Below, piece after piece: positions 3,891 to 24,274 of a stretch of DNA of 64,000 nt. Both the position numbers and the translations under genes were made by a program. Origin of the DNA: an uncultured delta proteobacterium (GTDB lineage: Bacteria; Myxococcota_A; Polyangia; Fen-1088); contig CAVTRY010000007.1 in NCBI GenBank assembly GCA_963737265.1, positions 288,001 to 352,000 on the forward strand, read 5' to 3'. Below the pieces are notes generated by a model that saw only the letters and a list, made by a program, of their open reading frames with translations, searched no databases and had not been told where the DNA came from. Within the stretch, counting starts at the first letter, position 1; each line of letters opens with the position of its first letter.

Positions 3891-4373
3891 ATGGATGGTA
3901 CAATGATGGGCATGTCAATGAACGTGCTGGACGCCATCATCCAACTGCGGCGTGCGCTTGCGCGCGCGTTCGCCGTGACCTTCACGGGTGATATCAGCGG
4001 CCGGCAGTCGGTGATTCTGCGCGAGATCGGAATCTGCGGTCCGGTGTCGCAGGTGGCCCTGGCGCGCGCCACGGCGAGCGATCCGTCGGCACTCGTACGG
4101 CTGCTCGACGATCTCGAAGCGCGTGAGCTCGTCGAACGACATCGTAGCGAGACGGACCGACGGGAGATGGTGGTGTCGCTGACGAGCCAAGGACGCAAGA
4201 CGCTCAAGCCTCTGGAGGTGGCGCACAAGCGATTGGCGGATACCGCCGCGGGGGCTCTCACCGTGGATGAAAGGCGCGTCTTTGTGGCCCTGGCCGCGAA
4301 GATCCAAAACCGTCTCACCACGCTGGTGGAAGGCGAGGTTGTTCTCTCGAAAGGTGCCGATGGGCAGAGCTAA
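3891..4373 (+). CDS. MarR-family transcriptional regulator
   Basis: 'LVRLLDDLEARELVER...DRREMVVSLT' wHTH; upstream of emrAB; exact start uncertain. Confidence 0.85.
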   Translation: MDGTMMGMSMNVLDAIIQLRRALARAFAVTFTGDISGRQSVILREIGICGPVSQVALARATASDPSALVRLLDDLEARELVERHRSETDRREMVVSLTSQGRKTLKPLEVAHKRLADTAAGALTVDERRVFVALAAKIQNRLTTLVEGEVVLSKGADGQS

Positions 4374-5643
4374 GCCAGCGGTTGAGGAGCCTATAGCGAC
4401 GGAATCCGCCGAAGTTTCGTCCGCAAGGCTCTATTTTCTCCGGCACCCGATCCTCCAGCATTCGCGCTTTCGGCGCGTCGTGGCCGCTCTCGCCCTGGTT
4501 CTGGCTGGCTTGGGCTTGCTGTGGTGGTTCCACTATCGCCCCTATGTCTCGACCGACGACGCGCGCGTCGCCGCTCCTTTGATCGTCATCGCGCCGCAGG
4601 GCTCGGGTGGTCGGGTGGACCGCGTTCTCGTGCGCGAGGGTCAGACGGTGCAAGCCGCCGAGCCGCTCGTCGAGCTGGATGCAAGCGCCGAGCGTTCCCA
4701 GGTCGACCGGGCTCGTGCTCTCCTCGCGCTCGCGGACGCGCGCGTGGGCGAGGCCGAGGCGCAGCTTCGCCTCGAACGCCGCCTGTCGGAGGCCACCGAG
4801 CGGCGGGCACGCGCCACTGTGCATTCGGCGCAGGCCTCTCAAGAGCGTACCACGCGCGGAGCACGCACCGAGGAAGTCGCCAAGGCGCGTGCCGACGTTT
4901 CCGCGGCCGAAACCCTTGCGGTTCAGGCCGGCCGCGACCTCGACCGGGCCGCGATGCTGGCGCGCGAAGGCGCCATCGCCGAAGTCAGTCTGGAAACCGC
5001 GCGAACTGGCGAAGCAGCAGCGCGCGCGTCGCTCGCATCGAAGCAAGCCATGCTCGACCTCCTTGAGCACGGCAATCGCTCCGAGGATATTTCCATCGCC
5101 CAAAGCGGCGTGCTGGCCGCCCAAGCCGGCCTTCTCGACGCCAGCGGCGGCACGGATCGTGTCGCTTTCCGCAGCCGCCAGGTCGAGGCTGCGCGTGCCC
5201 AGGCCGCGCAGGCGCGAGCCGAGCTGACGCTTGCCGAGGTCGCGCTCGCACGCATGACCTTGAAGAGTAGCGTCGGCGGCGTGGTCGTCCGCGTGCCGGT
5301 CGATCCCGGCGACTACCTATCGCCAGGGCAGGGCGCGGTGACCGTCGTCGACATCGCCCACGCCTGGATCGCCGCCAATGTCGAAGAGACGGCGTCGGGG
5401 CTGCTGCGTCTCGGGCAGGCCGCCGATATTTCCATCGACGAAGGTGGCGATCTGTCGGGGCGAGTCGACGTCATCACGCAGTCGGCGGCGTCCGCGTTCG
5501 CGCTCATTCCGGCCGACAACGCCGCCGGCAACTACACCAAGGTGGTCCAGCGCATTCCTATCCGCATCGCCATCGATGCCAGCCCGCGGGTTCGAGCCTT
5601 GCGCGCCGGCCAGTCGGTGGTGGTGAGGATCCGGGTTCGATGA
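4360..5643 (+). CDS. emrA: HlyD/EmrA-family membrane fusion protein
   Basis: TM anchor, 'VSTDDARV', coiled coil, 'ALIPADNAAGNYTKVVQRIPIRI'. Confidence 0.9.
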   Translation: MGRAKPAVEEPIATESAEVSSARLYFLRHPILQHSRFRRVVAALALVLAGLGLLWWFHYRPYVSTDDARVAAPLIVIAPQGSGGRVDRVLVREGQTVQAAEPLVELDASAERSQVDRARALLALADARVGEAEAQLRLERRLSEATERRARATVHSAQASQERTTRGARTEEVAKARADVSAAETLAVQAGRDLDRAAMLAREGAIAEVSLETARTGEAAARASLASKQAMLDLLEHGNRSEDISIAQSGVLAAQAGLLDASGGTDRVAFRSRQVEAARAQAAQARAELTLAEVALARMTLKSSVGGVVVRVPVDPGDYLSPGQGAVTVVDIAHAWIAANVEETASGLLRLGQAADISIDEGGDLSGRVDVITQSAASAFALIPADNAAGNYTKVVQRIPIRIAIDASPRVRALRAGQSVVVRIRVR

Positions 5644-7235
5644 GTCCGCCGCCTGTGCCCATCGGCCCGCCCGTGGACGACGGGTATCGCTGGCGCGTTC
5701 TTGGCGTGGTCATGCTGGGCACGGTAATGTCGGCGCTCGATTCGAGCATCGTCAACGTGTCGCTGCCCAACATGATGGCCAGCTTCGGCGCAAGCGTCGA
5801 CGACATCGAATGGGTCGTGACCGGTTACATGCTCGGCTTCTCGACCTTCATGCCCTTGACAGCGTGGCTTCGCGATCGCGTGGGTTACAAGGTGCTCTAT
5901 GTCGCCAGCCTCGCTGTTTTCATCGGTGGCTCCGCGCTGTGCGGACTCGCCCCCAACCTGCCGGCGCTGATCTTGGCTCGCGTGGTTCAAGCGTTCGGCG
6001 GCGGCGCCATCACCCCCACCGGCCTGGCCATGATCGCCGAGGTCTTCCCGCCCAAAGAGCGAGGGCGCGCGCTTGGCCTGTGGGGCGTCGGTGTCGTGGT
6101 TGGGCCCGCTTTCGGCCCCACCCTGGGCGGATACCTCACCGAGACGCTCGGCTGGCGCAGCATCTTCAACATCAACCTTCCCATCGGCGTAGTCGGCCTT
6201 CTCGCCGCCTCGCGGATACTTCGCGCCGACAAGCCGCACGCCGCGAGCCATCGTGGCTTCGATCTACCCGGGTTCGTGTTGCTCACCGCCTTTCTCGTCG
6301 GCGCACTACTCGGTCTCTCCAACGGCAATCGGGAAGGTTGGACCTCGAACTACGTCGTTGCCTGCGCGCTTGTGAGCAGCGTCTCGTTCGTGCTTTTCCT
6401 CGCCGTCGAAAGCATCGTCTCCGAGCGCATTCTCGATCTCGGGCTATTCCGCAAACCCCAGTTCACCGTGGCCATGGTGGTGACGTCCGCGCGCTCGGTC
6501 GCCTTGTTCGGTGGCATCTTTTTGTTGCCACTTTTCCTGCAGGATCTGATGGGCCGGAGCGAGATCGACACCGGGTTATTACTGCTTCCCGGCGCCTTGG
6601 TCATGGGGCTGGTCATGCTGGTCTCCGGCCGGATCGCGGATTGGCTCGGCACGCGCGTTTGCACGATTCTCGGCCTCTTGTTCATTGCTTGGTTCATGTG
6701 GACCTACCGCAGGCTCGACGTGACGACGAGCACGTGGGCCGTGCTCTACCCGACCCTGGTACGGGGTGTCGGGCTGGGTCTGCTGGTGACGCCGGTCATG
6801 ACCGCAGCTATCAATGCCGTGCCGACGCCGAAAGCCGGCATGGCTTCTTCGATGTTGAGCTTGATTCAACAAATATCGGGCTCGCTCGGCATCGCCGTGC
6901 TTGCCTGCGTACTCGGCCGGCGTGCCACCTTCCACCTCGCGGTGGTGGGTCAGGGCCTGGATGCCGCGCGACCGGCCCTCGCCGGCGCAACCCGAGCCCT
7001 CGCCACGCGCGCGCTCGAGCTTGGAACGCCGCCCGCCGCGGCAGGCCTAGTCGCGCGCTCGCTCGTCGCGCGCCAGATCGCCGGAGCGGCGTCGGTGCTC
7101 GCATTCAACGATGCCTTTCTAATCGGCGCGGCCATCGTCGGCGCGGGAGCCATCCCCGCGCTTTTTCTCGCATCCAAGTCGAAGTCCAAGGCACGCGCGC
7201 ACGGAGCCGCAGCGCAGGTCGAGGTTGTGGAGTAG
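5640..7235 (+). CDS. emrB: DHA2-family MFS efflux permease (EmrB/QacA)
   Basis: 'MSALDSSIVNVSLP', 'WRSIFNINLPIG', many TM segments. Confidence 0.92.
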   Translation: MSPPPVPIGPPVDDGYRWRVLGVVMLGTVMSALDSSIVNVSLPNMMASFGASVDDIEWVVTGYMLGFSTFMPLTAWLRDRVGYKVLYVASLAVFIGGSALCGLAPNLPALILARVVQAFGGGAITPTGLAMIAEVFPPKERGRALGLWGVGVVVGPAFGPTLGGYLTETLGWRSIFNINLPIGVVGLLAASRILRADKPHAASHRGFDLPGFVLLTAFLVGALLGLSNGNREGWTSNYVVACALVSSVSFVLFLAVESIVSERILDLGLFRKPQFTVAMVVTSARSVALFGGIFLLPLFLQDLMGRSEIDTGLLLLPGALVMGLVMLVSGRIADWLGTRVCTILGLLFIAWFMWTYRRLDVTTSTWAVLYPTLVRGVGLGLLVTPVMTAAINAVPTPKAGMASSMLSLIQQISGSLGIAVLACVLGRRATFHLAVVGQGLDAARPALAGATRALATRALELGTPPAAAGLVARSLVARQIAGAASVLAFNDAFLIGAAIVGAGAIPALFLASKSKSKARAHGAAAQVEVVE

Positions 7236-7241
7236 AGGCCG
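5929..7241 (+). repeat. direct repeat copy 1 (1313 bp) of emrB 3' part; partner 15708-17020
   Basis: Constant offset of 9779 bp; about ten substitutions seen by eye. Confidence 0.95.
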
Positions 7242-7314
7242 CGACCGGGTACCTCCTGTCTATTGGTCATGCCAGTCGCACCCCTGCCCCACGCGGCTGC
7301 GCCGCGCCCGTCGC

Positions 7315-7556
7315 TGAGCCGCCCAAACTCTGGCCCGCACGACCGCCTCCCTCGCGACCTGGTGGCGAGGGCGGAGACTGGCTGAACTGACGGCACGTCG
7401 ACCAGGTCGGGATGGAGTCGACTGCCCTGCGTGCTCGAGAAAGACCCCGTCAGCCCCAGAAACCGGATCAAGCGCGCTGCGCCAACGCGATCGGGGCCAA
7501 CCTGATGCGTTCCGGCAGGGTTCTCCGACGCTCAAAACACCCTTTGATTTGCCTAT
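7315..7556 (+). mobile_element. ISCR/IS91-family 3' remnant with oriIS-like end
   Basis: Near-identical to 23898-24141; encodes transposase tail 'PKLWPARPPP...GGDWLN*'; ends CCCTTTGATTTGCCTAT, similar to the ISCR oriIS consensus (TTGAA.TTCCTAT). Confidence 0.8.
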
Positions 7557-7621
7557 GGTCACGGCCCTCGTCTGTTCTTTTTACTTGCACTGCCTACGAG
7601 AGCTGCAACGGCATGTTGGAC
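7557..7621 (-). other. attC site truncated by the ISCR oriIS end
   Basis: Minus strand GTCCAAC-atgcc-GTTGCAGC-...ctcgtaggcagtgcaagtaaaaagaacag, homologous to attC 8130-8253; right arm missing. Confidence 0.85.
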
Positions 7622-7645
7622 GGCGCGATGTTCCCGGGTGCTCGC

Positions 7646-8113
7646 CTACGAAGGCTTTTCCCCCGCCGCCATTGCTCTCACCTGCGCCACCAGAGCGTCG
7701 ATGTCAATACCACCGAGCGCGAGAGCGAGCTTGTATGCATCCAGGACCGCGGCGTGGATCTGCTCAAGATCCTCCAGCATCCGCATCCGCCCTTCTTCAG
7801 AGAATTTGGCGAATCCGTGCCGGCGGTAGAATGAATGGGCCAGTCGATTTCGTGCAGCCAAAGCCGTAGCGAACACGCCATCAGCATCATGGAACTGAGG
7901 GTGCTTGTCCTTGAGTCTCCGGAAGATCTGCCCGAGCGTGCTTCGATTGATCTTCCGCAGAATCTGCGTTGCCTCTTCCCCACGGTCGCCAAGGAAGGCG
8001 TCGATCTCCTCGGCCTGCAAGATCAGTAGGTGAGTGCCCAGCTCCGTCTCGAGGAGCTGGGCAGCCTGGGAAGCATCTCCGAACTTGCGGAATATCTCGT
8101 CCATCGATGGCAT
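7646..8113 (-). CDS. cassette 4: hypothetical protein (155 aa)
   Basis: ORF bracketed by the complementary cores GTTGGAC (8130-8136) and GTCCAAC (7615-7621). Confidence 0.75.
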   Translation of the reverse strand: MPSMDEIFRKFGDASQAAQLLETELGTHLLILQAEEIDAFLGDRGEEATQILRKINRSTLGQIFRRLKDKHPQFHDADGVFATALAARNRLAHSFYRRHGFAKFSEEGRMRMLEDLEQIHAAVLDAYKLALALGGIDIDALVAQVRAMAAGEKPS

Positions 8114-8129
8114 GAGCCGATCTTCGTCC

Positions 8130-8253
8130 GTCCAACGCCTTGGCGTTAAGCTGCGGGCGGCCGTCTGCGACCGCCCATCTGCCCAGACGACCCGAATCAC
8201 TCCCTGTTCTTTTTACTTGCACTGCCTACGAGCGCTTCAACGGCCTGTTGGGC
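8130..8253 (-). other. attC site (124 bp)
   Basis: R'' GCCCAAC, L'' GTTGAAGC, L' GCTTAAC, R' GTTGGAC, with one extrahelical base in L''. Confidence 0.88.
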
Positions 8254-8262
8254 GGCGCACAC

Positions 8263-9741
8263 TCAGAACGCGAAGGCCTGTTGTGGTGAGCGGGCCAATC
8301 TAGGTCGCGGACCGAGGCCTTCGGCTCGCAGTAGCGCATCCAGAGAAAGCGACTGCAACAAAGCCTTATTGATTGGCCTCTTAGCGTCCCAGAAGATTCG
8401 AGCTGTGAAGAATGCAGATGCCTTTTCGCCGTTGAGAACACACGCCAGCTCGGCGGCTTCTTCTTCTGTCTTGCATGGAAGGAAGTACGCCGTATCGTCA
8501 ACCATCACGGGCTGTCCATCGATTGGCCGAACAACAGTGAATGCGATCCTTTTGTACAATCCACAGATTGCGACTTTGTATGGCGAGAAGGAATAGTCGC
8601 CGACCCCGAAAATCGCGAATGGTGGCTGATCTCGATAGATGCTGCTCTTACGCGCATCCAGATGTTCACGGTGGGAAATGAGATAGGCCCACGTAGAGGG
8701 AGCACGGTCTCGAATAGCGCCAGTATTTTCGCCAAGCGACCTTTGTGGGACAACAACGCGACGACGCGCAGTCATACGCCCGTTGGCCAGATCGGATCCC
8801 TTGAGGAGCGGATAGACGTACTCACGTTCGAGGTCAACTCGCTTCCCCATGCCATTGACCAAGTGGTCATCCACGATCTCAAGTTCCATGATGCGAGCAC
8901 AGTCATGCTTGATCCCGGAACGCCATTCTACCTCGGACGGGCCTTCGAGATTACGGGTTGCAAGATATGCGTCGACGTCACTGCAGAGCTGTCCATCCAC
9001 GACGCCCATGTGTTTGGATGGCGCAGAAGCGGTGATGCTTTCGTAGACGGACCATTTGTGAGCGTGACCCTTTTGAAGCGCGGAACTCGGGCGGTGAACA
9101 GTAAGGAGAACGGCGTCGACAGCAGCTGCGAAGTGCATGCGCGCGTCGATCGCGTGAACGGAGCCTTGGAGGTTCCAGCGTTGCAAAGCAACGTGCTCCA
9201 TAACTTTGCGAGCGACCCCTGCCTTACAGAGCATCGCCAGTGTTGTGTCGCTACCGTTGGCGGCCTGTAACAAGCGCAGGAGCATCCATTCCGAGATGTC
9301 AAAGTTGCTCTTCCCGGTCATCGCATCAAGCCCGCTCAGGTTCTTGAAGTTGGTCTTCGCCGGAAGGTTGCCGGCATCGAGCGCGCCTAGCGCGGAGTTG
9401 GTCACCCAGGGTGGATTGCCGATGACAAGCACCGGGGACGGGAGGCGAGCCAGGACGTTCTCCCATTTCACTTGAAAGAAGTCGGCAACTGCGATCTCTG
9501 CGTCGTAGCCGGTGAGTGCGTCGCGGGCATCGCGCACGTAGGATTCATTCAGATCGAACCCGAAGAGTCGCGCCTTCGGGAACACGGCGGCAGCTGCCGC
9601 GAGGAACGCGCCGCGGCCGCACGTGGGCTCCAGAATCGAAGCGGGAACACGAACATTGCTCGCCAGCAAAGAAACCACTCCCTCGGCCAGTTCTTGCGGC
9701 GTTTGCCAGTCACCAAATTCGATTCGTTTCTCATCACGCAT
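8263..9741 (-). CDS. cassette 3: amino-DNA methyltransferase (gamma motif order), NspV-like
   Basis: 'GDWQTP', 'ILEPTCGRGAF' (motif I), 'IGNPPW' (motif IV); directly downstream of the REase. Confidence 0.85.
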   Translation of the reverse strand: MRDEKRIEFGDWQTPQELAEGVVSLLASNVRVPASILEPTCGRGAFLAAAAAVFPKARLFGFDLNESYVRDARDALTGYDAEIAVADFFQVKWENVLARLPSPVLVIGNPPWVTNSALGALDAGNLPAKTNFKNLSGLDAMTGKSNFDISEWMLLRLLQAANGSDTTLAMLCKAGVARKVMEHVALQRWNLQGSVHAIDARMHFAAAVDAVLLTVHRPSSALQKGHAHKWSVYESITASAPSKHMGVVDGQLCSDVDAYLATRNLEGPSEVEWRSGIKHDCARIMELEIVDDHLVNGMGKRVDLEREYVYPLLKGSDLANGRMTARRRVVVPQRSLGENTGAIRDRAPSTWAYLISHREHLDARKSSIYRDQPPFAIFGVGDYSFSPYKVAICGLYKRIAFTVVRPIDGQPVMVDDTAYFLPCKTEEEAAELACVLNGEKASAFFTARIFWDAKRPINKALLQSLSLDALLRAEGLGPRPRLARSPQQAFAF

Positions 9742-9758
9742 GGTGCAAGGTCCAGGGT

Positions 9759-10421
9759 CTAGAGGCGAGCGACACCCTCGACAGAGCCGGCCTCGCGTAT
9801 CGCGTGACCGTACTGAAGTCTCCACTGGAGCGCGTTTGAGATGGTCAAGTAGCCCTGTGCGGGCGAGCTCTTGAGGACGTCGCGAGCAATATTGCGCAGC
9901 TCTATTTCTTCCACGGGAAGATTGCGGTCGGTCAGGTAAGCAACAACATCATCCTCATTGGCATCGTCGCTGATCATCTCCCGGAGCCTGCGAGTCATCG
10001 TGAAGTCGCCAGTTGCCCGCGCTTCAACGAAGATGGTGTGGAGGATTCTGAGATTAGCGGTTCGGTTTTGACGATCGTCCTTCTTGTCGTAGACGAAGAC
10101 CAAGAGGGAGTACCCGAGCCCAAAGATCTTCTGCCGAGCGGACTTGAACGGGCATGATGACTGCGGCTGCTTCTCGCTGGTGACCTTGATGTCGACGTTG
10201 ACGTCGGGGAAGTCGATACCCTTTGCCGAGTTGCCTTCTTCGAGGGCGTAGCGGTCTGCAATATAGGCCCGAAATTTCTGTTCCAGGTAGGTGCCGACGG
10301 CTTTGCCGTCGGTCACCCCGAAGAGACTCGGTTCGGCGTGCAGACTCTCCTTCTCAGAAGAACCGCGTGCTTCCTGCCGAAGCAGGGCTTCTGTGAGCTT
10401 ACGTTTCGCGGTGCGCGTCAT
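9759..10421 (-). CDS. cassette 3: type II restriction endonuclease, NspV-like
   Basis: 'GVTDGKAVGTYLEQKF', PD-(D/E)xK-like 'IDFPDVNVDIKVT'; paired with the MTase; the family is recalled from memory. Confidence 0.75.
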   Translation of the reverse strand: MTRTAKRKLTEALLRQEARGSSEKESLHAEPSLFGVTDGKAVGTYLEQKFRAYIADRYALEEGNSAKGIDFPDVNVDIKVTSEKQPQSSCPFKSARQKIFGLGYSLLVFVYDKKDDRQNRTANLRILHTIFVEARATGDFTMTRRLREMISDDANEDDVVAYLTDRNLPVEEIELRNIARDVLKSSPAQGYLTISNALQWRLQYGHAIREAGSVEGVARL

Positions 10422-10531
10422 GGTGAACAGACGTACAGTATGCTACCAGGTACTGGGACAACTGGCCACCGGGAACCGCACGCATGAGAAACACATGCAT
10501 CCACACCGCTTTGCGAGGTCCATCGTCGTCC

Positions 10532-10544
10532 GCCCAACGCTTTG
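10532..10544 (-). other. distal 13 bp (spacer + R' GTTGGGC) of the intron-interrupted attC
   Basis: CAAAGC-GTTGGGC matches CAAGGC-GTTCGAC of the sibling attC 13116-13219. Confidence 0.88.
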
Positions 10545-12430
10545 ATCGGCATAGGGGCCTCGACAGATCGTCAAGGACCCCTGCCACACCACCCGGCGTG
10601 CGGGTCCGCACCGGGCGGTTCGGGAAGTTGAGGTTACGTGGCCAGCCGGGGTACCCCCAACTGGTCAAAGTAGCGAATGGGAAATGCCACGTTCATCATA
10701 CTAGCCGAGTTTTTCCACCAGCGGCGACAGTTCACGGCCACTACGCCTGCTGCGTCATGGGACATCCCCCGAGCCCGCAGTTCCCGATAGACGGTCGATT
10801 GTTGTCCCCAGTGTTTCAAGTGGAGAGCCCGTAGGCGACGGCGAATCCATTTGTCCAAGTTGCCAAAGACCCGAGGCGTGTCCGCGAGCCGGAAGTATTC
10901 CTTCCAACCACGCAGATATTCCCCCAGCCGTTTGCAGACCTGGCCAATGCTTTGCCCGCCCGTCCGCCTCGTGATGTTCCGGACTTTGTCCTTCATCGTG
11001 GCAAGGGCTTTGTCTGCCACCGCGCGCTTCACCGTTCCTTCCCGGTTTACCCAGAATGTGTAACCCAGGATTTTCCGGTTCCACGCCAAGCCCACCGCGC
11101 TTTTCGTTTCATTGACTTGAAGTCGCAGTCCCGCGTAGAGCCGCCGTAGCAGCCCCATCACACGCTCGCCCGCACGCCGCGACCGAAGGTATACGTTGCA
11201 GTCATCAGCGTACCGGCAGAATGCGTGCCCGCGTTTCTCCAGCTCCTTGTCCACTTCGTCGAGCAGCACGTTGGCTAGCAGCGGTGACAAGGGGCCGCCT
11301 TGTGGCGTTCCCTCGTACCGCTCCGTCGCCACCCCGCCAGCCATAATGCCGGCCCCGAGGTAACGCCGGATGAGCCCCAGCAAACGACGGTCGCCGATGC
11401 GTTTCGCCAGTCTTCCCATCAGCACGTCGTGGTTCACGCGGTCAAAGAATTGCTCCAAGTCCACGTCTACCACCCACTTGCGTCCGCCCTGGATATACCC
11501 CTGCGCCTCGACGATGGCGTCGTGCGCACGGTGCCCAGGCCGGAAACCGTGGCTGTGCTTTGAGAAGTCCGGGTCGAACATCGGTTGCAGAACCTGCAAT
11601 ACAGCCTGCTGGATGAATCGGTCGACCACCGTCGGAATGCCAAGCTTGCGCATTCCTCCGCTGGCCTTCGGTATGAGTTGCTCCTTCACAAGCGCGGGCT
11701 GGTACGTCCCCGCGAGCAGTTCCTCGCGCAGCCGTGGCCAGTATTCGCGCAGGTGTATCGGCAATTCATCCACCGTCATCCCGTCGATGCCGGGACTGCC
11801 CTTGTTCCTTCTCACTCGCTTCAGCGCGGCCAAAAGGTTCGGGCGTTCGCACACCCTCTCCATCAGGCCGCTCGCTCCCGAGCGCTCGTTTTCACACGTC
11901 GCCGTCGGCGCTTCCTCGCTTCGTTTTCCCGTCGGGGTTTCACCCCTATTTGAAAACGTTAGCTCCAGTTGCCTGGTCATCTGAGGCCGTTTGCTTCCGA
12001 GACGCATGTTCGTTTCGCTCTCCTTCTCGTTCAGTCCTTCGCATCGCCAAAGACTTCCGGCGTCGGTGATATCGCCGCCCCGGCTTCGACTTCGCTACTA
12101 CGACCTCTGCTGACTTCTCGCCCCGTCGCGTCCGCGCCGTCGCCCTTTCAGGCACAAGGCGAGATCTCCCCAGGTAAGTACGTCGTCCTTCCCCGCACGA
12201 CCGCCGGATCTACGTAGCCTGAGCTTTGACCATCGAGGCTTTGTGGCAACGGGCCCACTCGCCCCGCTCGGCGCCGCCTCTTATCCGGTTTTTGTTCATC
12301 AGCCCGCGGTTTCGCTCCCTGCTTCCTCCCCACGATTGGTCGCCCTTTCGCAGTTGCAGTTCGCTTCGTTTGGGATGGTCTCCTTTCGGGGGGACTTGCA
12401 CCCCCAAGACGACGCCCATGCTGGGCGCAC
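10545..12430 (-). mobile_element. group IIC intron (1886 nt) inserted in an attC site
   Basis: 5' GTGCGCCCAGCATGGGCG; short DV with CGC triad (GAACCGCCCGGTGCGGACCCGCACGCCGGGTGGTG); DVI ending CCTATGCCGAT; removal restores a 104-bp attC. Confidence 0.95.
10634..12007 (-). CDS. ltrA: group II intron reverse transcriptase/maturase (no En domain)
   Basis: 'LGIPTVVDRFIQQA', 'GTPQGGPLSPLLAN', 'RYADD'. Confidence 0.95.
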   Translation of the reverse strand: MRLGSKRPQMTRQLELTFSNRGETPTGKRSEEAPTATCENERSGASGLMERVCERPNLLAALKRVRRNKGSPGIDGMTVDELPIHLREYWPRLREELLAGTYQPALVKEQLIPKASGGMRKLGIPTVVDRFIQQAVLQVLQPMFDPDFSKHSHGFRPGHRAHDAIVEAQGYIQGGRKWVVDVDLEQFFDRVNHDVLMGRLAKRIGDRRLLGLIRRYLGAGIMAGGVATERYEGTPQGGPLSPLLANVLLDEVDKELEKRGHAFCRYADDCNVYLRSRRAGERVMGLLRRLYAGLRLQVNETKSAVGLAWNRKILGYTFWVNREGTVKRAVADKALATMKDKVRNITRRTGGQSIGQVCKRLGEYLRGWKEYFRLADTPRVFGNLDKWIRRRLRALHLKHWGQQSTVYRELRARGMSHDAAGVVAVNCRRWWKNSASMMNVAFPIRYFDQLGVPRLAT

Positions 12431-12521
12431 CCGTTCAGCGGCAAGCCCGCCGCCGAGTCGGCGCTTCTATTCTACACGATGTCCCTGCGGCGGGATTGTC
12501 AGCTGCAACGGCTTGTTCGAC
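12431..12521 (-). other. proximal 91 bp of the intron-interrupted attC
   Basis: R'' GTCGAAC, L'' GTTGCAGC, L' GCTGAAC; highly similar to 13116-13219. Confidence 0.9.
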
Positions 12522-12551
12522 AGCGCGTCGGGGGCGCGGTTGGTTGCGCTC

Positions 12552-12926
12552 CTACTTCTTGGGCGGCTTCTTGCTCACCGTCATCGATCCCTTGGTCATA
12601 CGTGCGCCACCACCCTGGTCCAGCAGAACGGTCAACTCCGCCGAAGCGTCGACATTCAGCTTCTTCGGCGCGTTCGTCGAGATGACGATCGTCTGTTGGC
12701 CGAGATGAAAAGTGGTGGTACCAGACTCGATGGTGACGATCAGTGCTACGTTCGTCTGGTTCTTCACTTTCAGCTCAAGCTTGGCTCCTTCCTCCTTGGC
12801 CGTGAAGGTGAGGGCGAGCTGACCTGCGTCGAAGCCGTCCTTCAGCAGCACCGTTTCGCCGGCGAGGGCGGATCCGGCTGCCACGATCGTCATCACCAGC
12901 GCCATGACCATGAAGAGCTTTGTCAC
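12552..12926 (-). CDS. cassette 2: small secreted hypothetical protein
   Basis: GGAG RBS, GTG start, signal peptide 'MTKLFMVMALVMTIVAAGSALA'; bracketed by GTTCGAC/GTCGAAC. Confidence 0.8.
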   Translation of the reverse strand: MTKLFMVMALVMTIVAAGSALAGETVLLKDGFDAGQLALTFTAKEEGAKLELKVKNQTNVALIVTIESGTTTFHLGQQTIVISTNAPKKLNVDASAELTVLLDQGGGARMTKGSMTVSKKPPKK

Positions 12927-13115
12927 CGGAGGTCTCCTTTGTAGCCTCGCTGAGTCGACACGCTTGCCCTGTTGTTCGCTTACAGGGCCTGCGCGAGCAA
13001 GGAAACCGACCTATATCACGAACTCCCGGTCGAGCCTACCCTCAATGCCGGTTACTCAAGTGGTCCCCCAACGGTGAGATCGTAGGCGGCAGCGGTCCAT
13101 ACCACTCCCCAGTCT

Positions 13116-13219
13116 GTCGAACGCCTTGCCGTTCAGCTGCAAGCCCGCCGCCGAGTCGGCGCCTCGATTCTACACGATATCTCTGCGGCGGGATTGTCAG
13201 CTGCAACGGCTTGTTCGGC
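13116..13219 (-). other. attC site (104 bp)
   Basis: GCCGAAC-aagcc-GTTGCAGC...cccgccgc...gcggcggg...GCTGAAC-ggcaaggc-GTTCGAC imperfect palindrome. Confidence 0.93.
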
Positions 13220-13379
13220 GGCACACTGCCGAAAGATAGCATCGAGATCCGGGGACCCGATCGCCTCGGGGCAGTGTGCTTACGACGTGGCCTCCGCGAT
13301 GCCCCCTATGCCACCATCCCCAATCACCGACGGAAACAGGCCGTTTTTGAATCAGTAGTGCCAAATCCCATACCCAGGT

Positions 13380-14300
13380 CTACTTCACCAGTTGGACCTT
13401 AAAGTACACCGCCTTGGCAAGGATACCGGCGCCAACCCGAAGGGTAATTTGCTTCGGAGATTTCTCAAAGCCGTAGGTCAACTTGCATTTGAAGACGCCA
13501 TTTGGCGGTAGCGTGCCGTCGCACTTCGACTTCATCAAATCCAGCTCGCCCTGGTCGCCCTCCTCGGAAAGCGCCTCGAAAAATACAAGAGACGAAATCG
13601 TCTCCTCCTTTTCGGACTGGTTTTGTACTACCAACCCGAGGCTGGCCGTCTTGTTCTTGAGCGACGCTTCCTTGAGAGTCACCAACGTCTTTGCCCAGCG
13701 CTTCTGTGTACCGATTGGGTCGAGCGCGGTCTGAACCGCTGGCGACGCAGGTACAGACGGGTTTTCGATGAGGGGGACAGTAGCCGTGCACGCCTTCACC
13801 GATGAGAAGGCAATCTCGTACACAGGCGCGGTAATGGCGCCCTTCTCCGTGAGGCTTCGTTCCCGGCCATTGATCTTTCCGGAAAAGAGGACACAGCCGC
13901 CTTCCTGGAGGCTGCTTGCGGCTTGGTAGACTTCACTGCTGGACTTGATCTTGTCGAATAGCCCATAGCCCTGTTCGAACGTAATCTTGGCAGCGCCCCG
14001 GCCGATTGCGACGCGTAGCTTTAGTTTCGTCCCACCGTGGTTGGTCTCCAGTCTATCGACCCAGCCCTCCCAGTTCGTCACACGATGTTGCAAATCAGCG
14101 AAGAAGCGATCTTCGAATGCACGCGCCTCATTGAACACTTGGGACTTCTTGATTTCATTTGGCGCTGCATTGTACCTGTCCCTGAACTTCGCCATCTCGG
14201 ACGCGAAGTCTTGTGGGTGGCCGCTTGATGGCTCAGGCGTGACGGCGGCCGTGAAGAATGCCAGGAAGAACCCGGCCGCAGTCGATAAGGTTGTTTCCAT
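13380..14300 (-). CDS. cassette 1, ORF 2: exported hypothetical protein (possible OB-fold plus Ig-like domain)
   Basis: AGGAG RBS before the ATG at 14300; hydrophobic N-terminus; beta-rich C-terminus. Confidence 0.65.
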   Translation of the reverse strand: METTLSTAAGFFLAFFTAAVTPEPSSGHPQDFASEMAKFRDRYNAAPNEIKKSQVFNEARAFEDRFFADLQHRVTNWEGWVDRLETNHGGTKLKLRVAIGRGAAKITFEQGYGLFDKIKSSSEVYQAASSLQEGGCVLFSGKINGRERSLTEKGAITAPVYEIAFSSVKACTATVPLIENPSVPASPAVQTALDPIGTQKRWAKTLVTLKEASLKNKTASLGLVVQNQSEKEETISSLVFFEALSEEGDQGELDLMKSKCDGTLPPNGVFKCKLTYGFEKSPKQITLRVGAGILAKAVYFKVQLVK

Positions 14301-14313
14301 ATTGCGACTCCTT

Positions 14314-15321
14314 CTAATGCCTGATGTTCTGCAGGAACTCCGGATCGGCACGAACTCTGGCAATCCAGGCCCGATGCGCGGTTCCGAAGGCTGGGATGGT
14401 CCTGACCGCGGCAGGATGAGCAAGAGGGAGCCACGCGACAGAACGACCGCCGAGACGCAGGCTCACGGCCTTTCCGTAATCGTGACCCGCTGACAGGGCG
14501 GTAGGTGCAACCGAGCCGCCGTCCTTCGCCAGAAGCGTACGCAGCACGCGAAGGGCGGCATTCCCCAGGGTTACGATGACCTTGGGCTGAGCCTTCTCGA
14601 GCTCAGCCATCAACCGACGGCGCTGTGGTTGTTCCAGACCTTCTTGCACGATCGCATCCTCAGAAGGGTGGTGGGCAAGGGCTGCTGGCGGCGCCTTCGC
14701 GGCTGCAGCAAAGTGTGCGTAGGTATCTGCGATACGTTCTTCAGCACCCTCGCTGGCACGGTAGGTGTCCAGCACATCGGTGATCCAGACATCGCTGCGG
14801 ACAACCCCCAGCGGTGCTAGGAAATCGTGTGCTAGCTCAACTCCTGAGGAGCCGTTCAGTTTGCCGGTTGGTTCGACCCTGCCCCATTGGTTCTCGTCGA
14901 ACCTGACCTTGCGCTTCCACTCAGCGACTACTTCTACTTCGTCCGATCCCTGCCAAAAGGGCTCGGGTTCATTGTCCACGGGGAGCGCGCGCACGGTCTT
15001 GCCTGCCCTCGGCGGCGTCCATTGAACGTGAACGGCACTTGGGTAGGCACCTAGCACGAAGAGCAAACGCGGCGTGGATGCAGATGGCGGCCGCCGAAGA
15101 ACATGCGCTCCGAAGGGAAACCTATATTCTGGTAAATGGTCACCGGCGGTGTCCGTCGAGCTGGCGGCGATTCGGGCTGAGTTCATTCGCTCTTCTCCAC
15201 CGTCTCCTGCCAAAGTCAGTTTGCTCGCGACCAGAACCGTCAGCGCTGCGCCCAGCGAGCAAAGCGTACTGCCAGTCTGGGGCACGGACAGCATCATCTC
15301 ACTTTTCGAACGCAAATACAT
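14314..15321 (-). CDS. cassette 1, ORF 1: uracil-DNA glycosylase superfamily protein
   Basis: 'FVLGAYP', 'VWITD', 'QPKVIVTLGNAA', 'LPLAHPAA' UDG-like motifs; start uncertain. Confidence 0.7.
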   Translation of the reverse strand: MYLRSKSEMMLSVPQTGSTLCSLGAALTVLVASKLTLAGDGGEERMNSARIAASSTDTAGDHLPEYRFPFGAHVLRRPPSASTPRLLFVLGAYPSAVHVQWTPPRAGKTVRALPVDNEPEPFWQGSDEVEVVAEWKRKVRFDENQWGRVEPTGKLNGSSGVELAHDFLAPLGVVRSDVWITDVLDTYRASEGAEERIADTYAHFAAAAKAPPAALAHHPSEDAIVQEGLEQPQRRRLMAELEKAQPKVIVTLGNAALRVLRTLLAKDGGSVAPTALSAGHDYGKAVSLRLGGRSVAWLPLAHPAAVRTIPAFGTAHRAWIARVRADPEFLQNIRH

Positions 15322-15333
15322 CGAGGTTTGTCC

Positions 15334-15350
15334 GCCGAACTACCATTATC
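15334..15350 (-). other. attI site (core GTTCGGC, L box GATAATG)
   Basis: Minus strand GATAATG-gta-GTTCGGC; the core is complementary to R'' GCCGAAC of the first attC; lies between intI and the first cassette. Confidence 0.75.
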
Positions 15351-15534
15351 CCACGAAAAATAATCAATATCCCAACGCTGGATGCACGCCGTGATGGCTG
15401 AAAGCGGGGGTGCCGTTCCAGTCATTTCGCGGACTTGGATGCGTCTGCTTCATGAGAGGCCACCAGCCGGCCTGCCGGATAAAGACGGCGCGGCGGCCGG
15501 ATAAATATGGGAGCCACGTTCTTTGCGCCCGTTG

Positions 15535-15707
15535 TCAGTGGTCGAGAGGGCTTCGGACTCCACCAGCGCCGCGGTTCAGGACGTGGGTGTAGACCATGGT
15601 CGTGGCCACGTCTTTGTGGCCTAGCAACTCCTGAATCGTGCGGATGTCGTAGCCGTCTTCCAGCAGGTGGGTGGCGAAGGAATGACGCAAGGTGTGGGGG
15701 CTGACCA
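15535..15707 (-). pseudogene. intI: integron integrase, 3' remnant
   Basis: '[55 protein letters not shown]'; 5' part replaced by the emrB copy. Confidence 0.92.
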
Positions 15708-17020
15708 GCTCCGCGCTGTGCGGACTCGCCCCCAACCTGCCGGCGCTGATCTTGGCTCGCGTGGTTCAAGCGTTCGGCGGCGGCGCCATCACCCCCACCG
15801 GCCTGGCCATGATCGCCGAGGTCTTCCCGCCCAAAGAGCGAGGGCGCGCGCTTGGCCTGTGGGGCGTCGGTGTCGTGGTTGGGCCCGCTTTCGGCCCCAC
15901 CCTGGGCGGATACCTCACCGAGACGCTCGGCTGGCGCAGCATCTTCAACATCAACCTTCCCATCGGCGTAGTCGGCCTTCTCGCCGCCTCGCGGATACTT
16001 CGCGCCGACAAGCCGCACGCCGCGAGCCATCGTGGCTTCGATCTACCCGGGTTCGTGTTGCTCACCGCCTTTCTCGTCAGCGCACTACTCGGTCTCTCCA
16101 ACGGCAATCGGGAAGGTTGGACCTCGAACTACGTCGTTGCCTGCGCGCTTGTGAGCAGCGTCTCGTTCGTGCTTTTCCTCGCCGTCGAAAGCATCGTCTC
16201 CGAGCGCATTCTCGATCTCGGGCTATTCCGCAAACCCCAGTTCACCGTGGCCATGGTGGTGACGTCCGCGCGCTCGGTCGCCTTGTTCGGTGGCATCTTT
16301 TTGTTGCCACTTTTCCTGCAGGATCTGATGGGCCGAAGCGAGATCGACACCGGGTTGTTACTGCTTCCCGGCGCCTTGGTCATGGGGCTGGTCATGCTGG
16401 TCTCCGGCCGGATCGCGGATTGGCTCGGCACGCGCGTTTGCACGATTCTCGGCCTCTTGTTCATTGCTTGGTTCATGTGGACCTACCGCAGGCTCGACGT
16501 GACGACGAGCACGTGGGCCGTGCTCTACCCGACCCTGGTACGGGGTGTCGGGCTGGGTCTGCTGGTGACGCCGGTCATGACCGCAGCTATCAATGCCGTG
16601 CCGACGCCGAAAGCCGGCATGGCTTCTTCGATGTTGAGCTTGATTCAACAAATATCGGGCTCGCTCGGCATTGCCGTGCTTGCCTGCGTACTTGGCCGGC
16701 GTGCCACCTTCCACCTCGCGGTGGTGGGTCAGGGCCTGGATGCCGCGCGACCGGCCCTCGCCGGCGCAACCCGCGCCCTCGCCACGCGCGCGCTCGAGCT
16801 TGGAACGCCGCCCGCCGCGGCAGGCCTAGTCGCGCGCTCGCTCATCGCACGCCAGATCGCTGGAGCGGCGTCGGTACTCGCATTCAACGATGCCTTTCTA
16901 ATCGGCGCGGCCATCGTCGGCGCGGGAGCCATCCCCGCGCTTTTTCTCGCATCCAAGTCGAAGTCCAAGGCACGCGCGCACGGAGCCGCAGCGCAGGTCG
17001 AGGTTGTGGAGTAGAGGCCG
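15708..17020 (+). pseudogene. emrB: 5'-truncated duplicate of emrB (repeat copy 2)
   Basis: ~99% identical to 5929-7241; lacks the first ~96 codons; frame still open. Confidence 0.93.
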
Positions 17021-17186
17021 GGAGGCTGCTTTGCTATACATCCGTCCGAGCTGGATGGCGCCTTCGAGGGTGGACATCTTCTTATCGAAGGTCAGCGTGT
17101 TGGCGCCCTCGGAGCGATGGCGTGCGTGAATGAGGCGATTCGCGAGGCCGGCGCCGACGCCGGGATCGAGCGCAGCTGCCGCCTCG

Positions 17187-17492
17187 GACTTCCTTGGCTT
17201 CGGCGTTTTGGCGCGAGGTCTCGCCCAACTCTTCTGTCCTACCTGCCACGAGCGCTACGTTGTGGCCTGGAGCTGCAGAGGGCGCGGGTTCTGTCCAAGC
17301 TGTGGCGGCCGACGAATGAACGCGGGCGCGTTCAATCTGCTAGATCACCCCCTGCCCGAGGTGCCCTCGCGACAGTTTGTGATCACGGTGCCTTTCTCGC
17401 CGAGTTTCCGTTGGCCTTCGACCGGAAACTAAGTCCTGCGCATCTTCATCGACACCGTGGCGGCAAACGACCGCAGGCGTATGGCGGATCGA
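17187..17492 (+). pseudogene. ISCR/IS91 transposase fragment (Zn-binding region), interrupted by IS21
   Basis: 'CPTCHERYVVAWSCRGRGFCPSCGGRRM'; homologous to 23262-23580. Confidence 0.85.
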
Positions 17493-17528
17493 TGCTGGAC
17501 GTCAACTACATTCACCCGGTGACGTCAA

Positions 17529-18377
17529 TTACATCGCCCCATTGTTGTCGGGGGTAGTTGTCGTTGGTTGATCGGTAGTTGTCGTAGTTGTCGCTGGGGT
17601 GGTGACGCCTCTCTTTCGTGCTTCTTCGCTGCGGTAGCTGGGGCCGGTCATCTCAAGGATGACCGCGTGGTGGACCAGTCGGTCGATGGCGGCGGCGGTG
17701 GTCATGGGATCCTTGAAAATGCGGATCCAATCGCTGAAGACCAGGTTGCTGGTGATGAGGACGCTCTTGCGTTCGTACCGCTCGGCCAGGAAGGTGAAAA
17801 GGACCTCCATTTCATCGCGGCTCTGCTGGACGTAGCCGATGTCGTCGAGGATCACGGCGTGATAGATGTTGAGCGCGGCCAGTTCTCGTTCCAGGCGAAG
17901 GTCGCGCTTGGCGGCCAGCAGCCTCTGGACAAGCGCGAAGGTCGGCGTGAAGAGGACCCGGTAGCCGCGCCGGATGAGTTCGTGGCCGATGGCAGCCACA
18001 ACGTGACTTTTGCCTCGGCCGGGCAGTCCGAAGACGAGCAGGTTCTCCCCACGTTCGACAAAGCCACCCTCACACAGGCTCGCCATCTGCTTCATCACCT
18101 TGGGTGACAGCCGACCACGTTCCAGGGTGGCCAGGGTTTTCTCCGTGGGAAGGTCCGAATCGCGAAGCGCGCGATCGATGCGACGGGTTCGGCGCTCTTC
18201 GATTTCCAGTTCGGCCAGGTGCTGGAGGTATTGGCTGAAGGTCCACCCCTCGCGGCTGGCCTTGATCGCGATCTCCTCGGCGTGCCGGGTGAAGGCAGGC
18301 AGCTTGAGCGCGCGCAGAAGCACCAGCAGAGCGTCGAGCGCGCTCGGCTTGACCGTGTCTACGGAGACGTTGGTCAT
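17529..18377 (-). CDS. istB: IS21 helper ATPase
   Basis: Walker A 'GLPGRGKSH', 'ILDDIGY', 'AAIDRLVHH'. Confidence 0.93.
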   Translation of the reverse strand: MTNVSVDTVKPSALDALLVLLRALKLPAFTRHAEEIAIKASREGWTFSQYLQHLAELEIEERRTRRIDRALRDSDLPTEKTLATLERGRLSPKVMKQMASLCEGGFVERGENLLVFGLPGRGKSHVVAAIGHELIRRGYRVLFTPTFALVQRLLAAKRDLRLERELAALNIYHAVILDDIGYVQQSRDEMEVLFTFLAERYERKSVLITSNLVFSDWIRIFKDPMTTAAAIDRLVHHAVILEMTGPSYRSEEARKRGVTTPATTTTTTDQPTTTTPDNNGAM

Positions 18378-19873
18378 GATGCCACCTGTTCGAGGAGCAG
18401 GTCGTAGGACGCGAGATCGACCAGCGGTGCTTCGAGCGCGGGGACGCTCGGTGGATAGGTACTGTCCGTCGCCTGTGTGCATCTCTTCTTGGTTGCATCC
18501 GCCGTCAAGATGGTCCCATCGGCAAGCAGAGTCGTGAGCGCTTGCTCGACATCGGCTTCCATCGTGCTGGCGGCCAGGTGAAGAATGCGCAGGTATTCAA
18601 CGTCGCCTTTGATTCCAGGCTTGGTCGCCTGGATCGCGTCGTATGCCCGCCTGAAAGTCACGCTTGGAAACAGCTCTTCTCGGTAGACGTAGCGAGAAAA
18701 CGCGCCCGGCTTGCGCACCAAAGACCAGATGACGTGCCGGTAGTCGATGCGCGCGGTCTTGCCTCGCAGCCTGTCGCAGGCCAATTCCAAGTTGTCGGCG
18801 TAGTACACCTCGATTCGGTGCTCGAACACGCGGACTCTCACCCGTGCGCCGATCAGCCTCGACGGCACCGAGTAGGCGCACGACTTGACCCGGATGGTGC
18901 TCGTCGACGCCACAGGTGCCGTCATTTCTGCGTACTCCGGCAAACGCTCCACCACCAGCGGCCGCATGGCTTCGATCTCCTCGGCGACGCGCGGGCCTCG
19001 CGAAGCGTTGGCTTTGCGGACCACCTTGGCTACGAAGCGTTCGTAGTCGTCTTGGTCCGCGAAGTCGCGGCTGCCACGCACCAGCAACGCTTGTTCAAGC
19101 CGACGCTTGAGCGCGCCGTTGCTGGCCTCCACATCGCCGTTTTGTTCCTTGGCCCCGACGGCTGTAGTTCGTGGCTCCATTCCGAGGTGCCGCATGACCG
19201 CCTTGTATTCATCGTTGAAAGTGCGATCTTCCGCATCGCGAGCGATCTGATGTGTCGCCGCCGTCGAGTGGTCGGTTTGGTGGTATCGCGGCACCCGCCC
19301 AAGCTGGAACAGCGCCGACTGGATCCCTCGCCGAAGCGCTGCCAGAGACTCCGACAGACACGCGGTCGCCCATTGCCAGTTCGAGTACGGCAGCACCGTC
19401 ACGCACAAAAGGTGCACAAATAGCTGGCCCACGATCGTCACACCAAGCTCCGCCGTCGACGTGAAGTCGGTTTGCGCGGCTTCACCGGGCCGATGCGCCT
19501 GCGTGAACCAAATCTCACGCGCAGGACCATGCTCGGCCCGCCAGCGACGGATTCGCCGCTGCATTGTCCGAAGATGGCTCTCGTTGTACCGCCCTGGCTG
19601 CTTCGCCTCCAGCAGCTCCAGCACCGTCTGAGCCTCCAGCCCAGGCGTTTCCTCCAGCAACTTGGCCACGGCTGGCCAGTCCTCGGCGAACGCGTCAGGG
19701 CGCGTCCGCCACCACCGCGGCTGCCGTAGCTCCGACGGTAGCTTGCCCGCGGCGATGTATCGCCGCCCTGTCTTCCGGTCCATGCCCGCCTTCATGGCGG
19801 CCTGGCCTACTTTTCCAATCTTGCTCATCTCTTCCATCAAACGCCTCACTTGGGCGTCGGTGACCGGCTTCAA
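18374..19873 (-). CDS. istA: IS21 transposase
   Basis: 'AGMDRKTGRRY', 'PGEAAQTDF', 'YSVPSRLIG'. Confidence 0.92.
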   Translation of the reverse strand: MKPVTDAQVRRLMEEMSKIGKVGQAAMKAGMDRKTGRRYIAAGKLPSELRQPRWWRTRPDAFAEDWPAVAKLLEETPGLEAQTVLELLEAKQPGRYNESHLRTMQRRIRRWRAEHGPAREIWFTQAHRPGEAAQTDFTSTAELGVTIVGQLFVHLLCVTVLPYSNWQWATACLSESLAALRRGIQSALFQLGRVPRYHQTDHSTAATHQIARDAEDRTFNDEYKAVMRHLGMEPRTTAVGAKEQNGDVEASNGALKRRLEQALLVRGSRDFADQDDYERFVAKVVRKANASRGPRVAEEIEAMRPLVVERLPEYAEMTAPVASTSTIRVKSCAYSVPSRLIGARVRVRVFEHRIEVYYADNLELACDRLRGKTARIDYRHVIWSLVRKPGAFSRYVYREELFPSVTFRRAYDAIQATKPGIKGDVEYLRILHLAASTMEADVEQALTTLLADGTILTADATKKRCTQATDSTYPPSVPALEAPLVDLASYDLLLEQVAS

Positions 19874-19985
19874 AGGTGCCTCCTGCCCGCTTGCGGGCTT
19901 GGAGGTCTACCTCACGGTCACCGTCGCGCCTCAAAGCGGGGCGACGTAGCTGTCGTCTTTGGGGAGATGTAATTGTCGCTCAGCA

Positions 19986-20068
19986 GATCGAGGCATTCCC
20001 GGCAGCAAGCATGGCGCGGTCGCAGTCATCCAGTGCGCCAACAGCGACCTGCGCTGTAACCCTCATTC
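19986..20068 (+). pseudogene. continuation of the ISCR/IS91 transposase
   Basis: 'DRGIPGSKHGAVAVIQCANSDLRCNPH' resembles the IS91 'GAVT.IQR...NPH' motif and continues the fragment left of IS21. Confidence 0.75.
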
Positions 20069-20189
20069 TACCGGGCGGTGGCGACGTCGCTTCCCACCTG
20101 CACGTGGCGCGCGGTGTGCCGCCGGGCCGAACGACAGTGCGCCTGGCCGCAACCGAAAACCTGGGCTCGCAGGTCGTTCCTTATCTCAA

Positions 20190-20510
20190 CCGGCTTTCTT
20201 TGCTGCTGTTCTCGATGGGCAAGCCACCCTTGACGGTGTGCCAGCACTGCTCGACACGCATGAGCTGCTTGTAGCCAAGCGCCAGCCAAGGCCATCCTAG
20301 AGAAGAACGGCTTTTCCGACGTCACCAATGCCGGAGGGCTCAAGGACATGCCGCCCCGCTAGTCTTGTGTGACACGTTCACGTACGAACGGCAGCACCTT
20401 CTTGTGTCTGGCTCAACGTGCATGCCCACGTGCGCGTGGGCGCCAATGACCGCGACGGACTCGAGCACCTGTGCCGGTACCTTGCCAGGACGCCGATTGC
20501 GAACGCGGTC
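20190..20510. pseudogene. mosaic of fragments: IS1634-like (minus), rhodanese C-terminus (plus), ISCR transposase (plus)
   Basis: 'YKQLMRVEQCWHTVK'; 'AKAILEKNGFSDVTNAGGLKDM*'; 'NVHAHVRVGANDRDGLEHLCRYLARTPIA'. Confidence 0.55.
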
Positions 20511-23060: not shown

Positions 23061-23088
23061 TGTAACCCGCTGACCGACATCCTCCTTC

Positions 23089-24141: not shown

Positions 24142-24274
24142 GGTCAAGCGCCCCTGGATGCAGGATCTCGTGGTGCGCTGAACCTGAGACGCTTCACTTC
24201 AAGGCAGATTTGCGATGCCGCCAGTCAATGAAAAACATCATCTGGTCTGAGCTTTTTCATGGTACTTTCAGCCG

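Follow-up and report, generated by a model that had tools for sequence, protein, structure and literature searches.

A stretch of 64,000 nucleotides from an uncultured delta proteobacterium (assembly GCA_963737265.1, contig CAVTRY010000007.1, positions 288,001 to 352,000), referred to here as the window, carries a complete emrB efflux gene, the end of an ISCR/IS91-type element, a piece of an integron and a second, 5'-truncated copy of emrB in direct orientation (Table 1). We propose, with a probability of about 0.45, that this structure is a real mosaic built by a rolling-circle element of the ISCR/IS91 type and then by homologous recombination. The evidence consists of a long emrB repeat, an integron piece whose two ends cut an attC and the integrase gene, and an element end that is common to a multicopy family in the same genome.

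The emrB repeat and its integron cargo

Positions 5929-7241 and 15708-17020 were aligned by a shift of 9779 bp. The alignment spans 1313 bp with 10 mismatches (99.2% identity), and both flanks are at background identity. Copy 1 belongs to a complete emrB gene, and copy 2 begins within the gene. The full gene and its nearly identical 3' copy, both noted in the initial annotation of the region, were thus confirmed, the former by its TIGR00711 match. Eight of the ten differences between the copies are synonymous (P 0.0009-0.015 under neutrality, varying with the mutation model), and therefore the copies diverged as working alleles in separate lineages. This synonymous excess favours import over local duplication followed by decay. 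When the differences were polarised with four outgroups (~78% identity), the derived state was found mostly in copy 2, including both non-synonymous changes.

The cargo between the copies (7561-15707) is an integron piece. Read on the minus strand, it comprises a cut attC, four cassettes, attI and a stub of intI. The four cassettes were verified by their ends, as the first six bases of each are complementary to its own R'' box (4/4). All four attCs show the arrangement C-AAC-N5-GTTNNNC on the plus strand. The attC scan with a stem-score threshold detected attC D, that of cassette 1, alone, and the boxes of the others were located directly; the fold of attC B did not stand out against shuffles (z -0.6). 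Of the 124-bp attC at 8130-8253, the segment at 7561-7621 corresponds to the R''/L'' half alone. On the presumed bottom strand, all four attCs carry C as the extra-helical base, where classical attCs have G.

The attI and the cut intI were likewise recovered. Over ~200 bp downstream of the intI stop, three loci of the genome (the window and contigs C17 and C11) agree at 97% identity, and the agreement stops at the GTTCGGC core; this conserved stretch is read as a putative attI. The intI stub shares 87% amino acid identity with residues 290-356 of an intact IntI encoded at C17:93518-94585 (TIGR02249 455.8 bits, cut-off 265), whose array extends to ~109277. An intact intI, which the initial annotation had recommended seeking in related genomes, is present as a paralogue in the same genome. 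The IntI of this lineage scored 346.5 bits against the class 1 model NF011946, under the cut-off of 435. The second of the other integron regions lies at C11:1164756-1197663.

We surveyed the side on which attC sites lie in this genome and in two related metagenome-assembled genomes labelled Myxococcales or delta proteobacterium. All attC-like matches (11, 5, 14 and 4 in loci L033, L034, L036 and L037) are located downstream of intI in the same orientation, with none upstream. Therefore, the integron is of the 'inverted' type, in which intI is on the cassette strand and points towards attI.

The integron piece and the two other intI/attI regions of the genome share 97.1-97.7% identity without being the same sequence, and no other joint between a cut intI (intI') and an emrB fragment (emrB') was found in the genome. 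This 2-3% divergence, together with the lack of a second joint in the genome, favours a putative outside donor. At the intI'/emrB' joint, the overlap is a microhomology of 3 bp (15708-15710). Cargo ends that cut attC and intI, with 3 bp of microhomology, fit transposition-type joints and not site-specific or homologous ones.

The ISCR-like family and its common end

The initial interpretation depended on the segment 7315-7556 being an IS91-family end. It is a genuine end of a multicopy ISCR/IS91-type element, and the sequence at 7242-7571 has 45 matching places in the genome. The right ends of the family comprise 25 listed ends and one cut off by a contig edge. Of the 25, sixteen finish exactly in TATGGTC, and the remaining nine have variants of one or two bases, an indel or a tandem terminal repeat. 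The listed ends read ...CTATGGTC or a close variant and their flanks diverge beyond it, which makes a sharply defined common end on the oriIS side. Thus, the element boundary lies at 7560/7561. The truncated element at this boundary (ISCRa') does abut the cut attC with its oriIS end, as annotated, except that the boundary is 4 bp to the right of the annotated 7556/7557.

The start of ISCRa' (7281) falls in a 66-bp insertion typical of one ISCR sub-lineage. The 39-bp spacer between the emrB repeat and ISCRa' (7242-7280) has no second copy in the genome. It was considered as an ISCR left end (terIS) and rejected, since it bears no likeness to the left ends of the family copies. The two emrB copies are followed by different sequences from 6 bp past the stop, as the initial annotation had cautioned. 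One illegitimate joint (17020/17021) suffices to account for this if the spacer is native intergenic DNA.

Full copies of the element have the Zn_Tnp_IS91 and Y2_Tnp domains, and the one on contig C23 encodes a protein of 501 amino acids. This transposase scored best against NCBIfam ISCR_clade_Ia (291.8 bits, below the cut-off of 925), and it reached 86.5 bits against the NCBIfam IS91 equivalog, below the cut-off of 125. Y2_Tnp (PF04986) was found above its cut-off at 28 places in the genome, and Zn_Tnp_IS91 (PF14319) was found in the window copy at 23089-23778. The transposase family is 36.9% identical to the nearest plasmid-borne IS91/ISCR transposases, which are carried by resistance plasmids. 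Judged from these scores, the family is a distant branch of the ISCR/IS91 superfamily and not a named ISCR.

Four copies with at least 99.75% identity have one end in common. With the copy on C23 (end at 545023) as the reference, the remaining three continue to the left for 1919, 2713 and at least 3215 bp, where their flanks differ. The common end and the variable left extents are the mark of read-through rolling-circle transposition and give direct comparative evidence of it in this genome; the family thus carries upstream DNA with it. The last 90 nt on the oriIS side fold no better than shuffles (z -0.44), and the left ends of the copies are fuzzy. A GTTC/CTTG-type target is a feature of IS91; none was found beside the ISCR ends here.

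Two further observations were made on the family. At five of the 25 listed ends, part of the terminal ~20 bp is repeated directly after the end, which would fit re-use of the oriIS cleavage site. One ISCR sub-lineage has a 35-bp repeat (hairpin GCGGC-TGC-GCCGC) inserted at several internal positions; among its places are C23:539540-539574 and 539800-539837, and it is also scattered over six congeneric genomes at 91-100% identity.

Proposed history and alternatives

We reconstructed the order of events, the circle and the crossover from the observed parts and joints, the common end of the family and its variable left extents. The transposase-less ISCRa' stub, with an intact oriIS end, would have been located in a related donor lineage, 45 bp downstream of emrB. 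Replication would have started from this end, with transposase supplied by intact copies elsewhere, and proceeded leftward past the stub through 1313 bp of emrB. The resulting emrB'-stub unit would have landed in the intI of an integron, forming the intI'/emrB' joint (15707/15708). A second read-through from the same end would then have taken emrB', the intI stub, attI and the four cassettes (8.1 kb of integron), and stopped inside an attC. The product may have closed as a circle of 9,779 bp with its circle joint at 7560/7561. This circle would have entered the recipient chromosome via one crossover within emrB, at a site where a fragment of a vapC gene (vapC') and a second ISCR-type element (ISCRb) already followed emrB. 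The predicted outcome is a full emrB followed by the circle DNA, and then a truncated emrB followed by the vapC fragment of the recipient, the old ISCRb and the rest of the island described below.

A full gene, an insert and a 5'-truncated direct copy are the expected product of a single crossover with a circle, which explains the two emrB copies 9.8 kb apart. A circle-plus-recombination model of this kind was reportedly put forward for ISCR1 by Toleman et al. in 2006. If the four joints are real, they can be paired in just one other way, as a single-emrB chromosome and a closed 9,779-bp circle, which is the predicted intermediate.

ISCR transposase sequence was annotated downstream of copy 2 and is present, but it starts ~150 bp past the repeat, behind the vapC fragment, and is 5'-truncated and split by an IS21-family element. 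The two pieces of ISCRb (17170-17492 and 19986-20504) show 71% amino acid identity to the ISCR family by tblastn, and the first ~58 codons are gone. ISCRb is a different, older and decayed element, outside the canonical ISCR1 layout. The missing 5' part of intI would make emrB'-ISCRb a plain insertion in intI; it was sought near ISCRb, and none was found in the window. The IS21-family element has 19 full-length copies in the genome (the one in the window and 18 others) at ≥99.8% identity, a sign of a very recent burst.

In four of five relatives' loci (G010, G002, G008 and G005), a homologue of 29639-30262 lies within ~15-110 bp after emrB; in the fifth (G012), no match to it was found within the 1.3 kb compared. 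This gene encodes an isochorismatase-like hydrolase and is the next conserved gene after the inserted DNA. As emrB adjoins it in relatives, 7242-29627 is an island of mobile debris (22.4 kb). The island also holds a TetR regulator, a methyltransferase, a TPR protein, an AAA/DUF4143 ATPase, large unannotated open reading frames (ORFs) and a third, internally deleted ISCR copy (23074-24146). Immediately ahead of the hydrolase gene, positions 29605-29638 (…CTGGAGTAAGAAGAGCGC-ATG) look like the sequence around the emrB stop in relatives (…CTGGAGTGAAGA…), a likeness that may be fortuitous or may mark what remains of the original emrB end.

Several points weigh against the circle and crossover. A 280-bp stub without transposase lies between emrB and the cargo, and mobilisation in trans must therefore be assumed. 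The 39 bp at 7242-7280 were sought at the right edge of the older island and are not there; if they are the native spacer, a further deletion has to be supposed. The left ends of the family and the read-through termini yielded no terIS or shared termination motif. The assembly is derived from a metagenome, consists of 25 contigs and is rated 7.6% contaminated. PMC6218425 states that, up to 2018, no experiment had demonstrated transposition of an ISCR.

The joints can also be explained by serial capture by ISCRb without homologous recombination, in which vapC', emrB' and the integron were taken up in turn and joined at the resident oriIS end. ISCRb, having lost its own left end, would carry the vapC fragment and land 6 bp after emrB in another lineage. 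Read-through would then take 1313 bp of emrB, and the unit would land in intI and pick up 8.1 kb of the integron. Finally, the cleavage site of the resident ISCRa' oriIS, 45 bp after the resident emrB, would receive the unit (from 7561 to beyond ISCRb). This scheme fits the joints about as well as the circle and recombination do. The vapC fragment, emrB' and the integron are nested to the left of ISCRb as successive read-throughs predict, every joint is of one type (left end to target), the 39-bp spacer need not be deleted, and the tandem terminal repeats at five of the 25 listed ends point to re-use of oriIS ends as joining sites. However, it would be a coincidence that an emrB fragment came back to within 325 bp of the resident gene, with odds of ~1 in 25 even if all targets were oriIS ends. 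Moreover, the oriIS end of the decayed ISCRb was sought and not found, which leaves the right end of the supposed unit undefined. We consider serial capture unlikely. The SNP mapping suggested in the initial annotation, which polarised the emrB differences mostly to copy 2, did not place a crossover, because saturation at third positions is too strong and one-sided patterns are expected under either model.

An unrelated illegitimate rearrangement is a further explanation, such as a repair-mediated insertion or a segmental duplication that insertions and deletions later remodelled, with the ISCR end as a bystander. The 22-kb island is indeed a patchwork of an IS21-family element, three ISCR remnants, a vapC fragment and unannotated genes, with many joints that lack a recognisable signature. 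The cargo, however, begins at the exact terminal nucleotide common to ~25 copies, an unlikely coincidence unless the end helped to form the joint. We regard this explanation as improbable.

The structure might instead come from assembly. A single-emrB chromosome with vapC'-ISCRb would then have been threaded with 7242-15707 and an emrB 3' fragment from a circle, a tandem multimer or another strain, which the assembler joined via the shared 1.3-kb repeat. An a-b-a path is what a loop in the assembly graph yields, and the number of contigs and the contamination given above agree with this. Against it, the contigs traverse the 18 other full-length 2.5-kb IS copies (≥99.8%), which implies long reads that would resolve a 1.3-kb repeat with 10 differences. 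In addition, the assembly has no alternative contig for the locus, and an overlap of just 3 bp at the intI'/emrB' joint is not assembler-made. We regard an assembly origin as very improbable. A one-emrB chromosome with a free circle is either the state before integration in the favoured model or the assembler's threading of that state. In a low-depth soil metagenome, whose short contigs cover much of 7251-17400, no listed piece crosses 7241/7242, 7560/7561, 15707/15708 or 17020/17021. In metagenome scans, 0 matches were obtained for a 33-nt word over the intI'/emrB' joint, and likewise 0 for a 24-nt word covering the end of emrB and the 6 bp after it.

The interpretation as an analogue of ISCR1 complex integrons in the initial annotation thus stands in its topology, its ISCR/IS91 end and the variable left extents. 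It is weakened by the 280-bp stub, the non-canonical ISCRb and the similar fit of serial capture.

Table 1 Features of the emrB-integron region and of related element ends.
Feature	Position	Strand	Evidence or remark
emrA-like membrane-fusion protein (HlyD family)	4267-5643	+	Pfam HlyD_D23, HlyD_3; conserved upstream of emrB in relatives
Full emrB, DHA2 MFS efflux permease, anchor gene	5640-7235	+	TIGR00711 397 bits (cut-off 230); MFS_1 E 2e-60
Repeat copy 1: emrB 3' 1307 bp + 6 bp	5929-7241	+	1303/1313 identical to 15708-17020
Spacer, 39 bp, possibly native emrB-downstream DNA	7242-7280	.	
ISCRa', 5'-truncated ISCR/IS91-type element, 280 bp	7281-7560	+	45 bp after emrB; terminus ...CCTATGGTC
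35-bp GC-rich repeat, within ISCRa'	7281-7315		
Last 25 transposase codons, within ISCRa'	7313-7387		
Truncated attC of cassette 4	7561-7621	-	cut at 7561 by ISCR end; R'' box GTCCAAC at minus-strand 7621-7615
Cassette 4 ORF, 155 aa	7646-8113	-	no family match
attC of cassette 3, 124 bp	8130-8253	-	boxes located; relatives in other arrays of the genome
Cassette 3, type II restriction-modification pair	8263-10421	-	
Cassette 3 methyltransferase	8263-9825	-	weak methyltransferase Pfam matches
Cassette 3 type II restriction endonuclease	9759-10421	-	NF052465 327.5 bits, cut-off 290
attC of cassette 2, split by group II intron	10532-10544 + 12430-12521	-	
Group II intron, 1885 bp, in attC of cassette 2	10545-12429	-	Rfam RF02001 100.6 bits
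Intron reverse transcriptase/maturase ORF	10634-12007	-	RVT_1, GIIM
Cassette 2 ORF, 124 aa	12552-12926	-	cassette 99.86% identical to one in C11 array
attC of cassette 1 (attC D)	13116-13219	-	hairpin -34.1 kcal/mol, z -4.5, 0/200 shuffles match; boxes
Cassette 1, two genes	13380-15321	-	13 nt apart, AAGGAG ribosome-binding site
Cassette 1 secreted-looking protein, unknown	13380-14300	-	
Cassette 1 UDG-superfamily protein	14314-15321	-	
attI region	15334-15537	-	core GTTCGGC, minus strand 15340-15334
intI stub, last ~57 codons	15538-15707	-	cut at 15707/15708; TIGR02249 positions 258-313, E 2e-31
Repeat copy 2: 5'-truncated emrB 3' part + 6 bp	15708-17020	+	
25 bp + 3' fragment of vapC/PIN gene	17021-17187	-	73-81% identity with PIN-domain genes of 3 relatives
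ISCRb, diverged, 5'-truncated, decayed ISCR-type transposase gene (aa ~58-348)	17170-20504	+	ISCR_clade_Ia E 3e-17
IS21-family element, 2493 bp, splitting ISCRb	17493-19985	-	istA 18374-19873, istB 17529-18482; GATCGA on both sides
Ends with tandem partial terminal repeat	C12:46246, C19:10042, C14:431215, C14:418419, C14:364192		

Cassette contents and relation to known systems

Cassette 3 holds a complete type II restriction-modification pair within a single integron cassette. The attC of cassette 2 is interrupted by a group II intron. Other copies of the intron are located at C17:97172-99169, C11:1168246-1170211 and C14:93212-95107, and three of the four copies are in attC sites. Integron-associated introns of the group IIC-attC type are described in PMC3001079 as lying on the attC bottom strand, opposite to cassette transcription. 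The intron here differs in that it runs along cassette transcription, on the same strand as all cassette ORFs and intI; this strand assignment relies on the ORFs, the position of attI and the attC geometry.

The locus matches the layout of ISCR1-linked class 1 integrons, with an anchor gene, an ISCR oriIS end towards variable DNA and a partial direct copy of the anchor (PMC6218425, PMC3575428 and PMC13393415). ISCR1 is described as located 24 bp after sul1, with a variable oriIS side (PMC6218425), and duplications of the 3'-conserved segment (3'-CS) are described for ISCR1 complex integrons (PMC3575428). The first joint here lies 6 or 45 bp past emrB. A chromosomal emrB, and not the 3'-CS (qacEdelta1-sul1), is the anchor in this locus. 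Class 1 integrons are marked by a class 1 integrase and a 5'-conserved segment; the IntI of this lineage scores below the NF011946 cut-off, as given above. The cargo is itself an integron fragment. Anchor copy 1 is followed not by a complete ISCR with its transposase gene but by a 280-bp remnant of the 3' end. The host belongs to an uncultured soil lineage, and its transposases are separated from those of resistance plasmids by the low identity reported above (36.9%).

A second likeness is to groEL/intI1-ISCR3, found in Salmonella genomic island 1 (In104) and in qepA/rmtB plasmids, where, as described in PMC3285670 and PMC4606065, a fragment of a housekeeping-type gene is fused to a truncated intI and the attI and cassette side is retained. 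That structure keeps the 5' part of intI1, whereas the 3' part is kept here, and the hitch-hiking gene is emrB and not groEL. The 3' part of intI is retained here because intI points towards attI in this integron type. The integrase, the anchor and the ISCR lineage all differ, and the locus is a member of neither the ISCR1-complex class nor the groEL/intI1-ISCR3 class.

The constant oriIS end, variable left extents, lack of inverted repeats and co-transfer of upstream DNA are shared with one-ended transposition of IS91 and IS1294, as described in general terms in PMC3575428, PMC6218425 and PMC13393415. The family differs from these elements in the absence of a GTTC/CTTG-type target beside its ends here and in its score below the IS91 equivalog cut-off. 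The complete gene, the circle DNA and the truncated direct copy with resident downstream DNA also resemble the product of Campbell-type single-crossover integration, with the difference that we infer the circle and did not observe it.

ISCR elements are held responsible for the assembly of multi-resistance regions. The locus is a new environmental example of a known mechanism, that of ISCR1 complex integrons and groEL/intI1-ISCR3, and the genome gives comparative evidence of recent ISCR-type activity in its near-identical copies with one end and different left extents. An ISCR1-like layout occurs here outside the clinic and is made of other parts: the anchor is an efflux gene, and the cargo is a fragment of an integron. 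More specifically, the transposase-less oriIS stub of an active environmental ISCR-like family may have lifted an attI and its array from a sedentary chromosomal integron, and emrB homology may have delivered them next to the efflux operon of another strain; we hold this full account to be doubtful. If true, it would be an independent natural replay of the origin of complex class 1 integrons and would suggest ISCR-type read-through as a general route for mobilising chromosomal integron platforms. In that case, the intact C17 IntI, whose attI shows 97.7% identity, could still act in trans on the orphan attI and its array. Integron attI/cassette arrays can themselves be ISCR cargo, and oriIS-only mobilisation in trans could be studied in this family as a tractable system.

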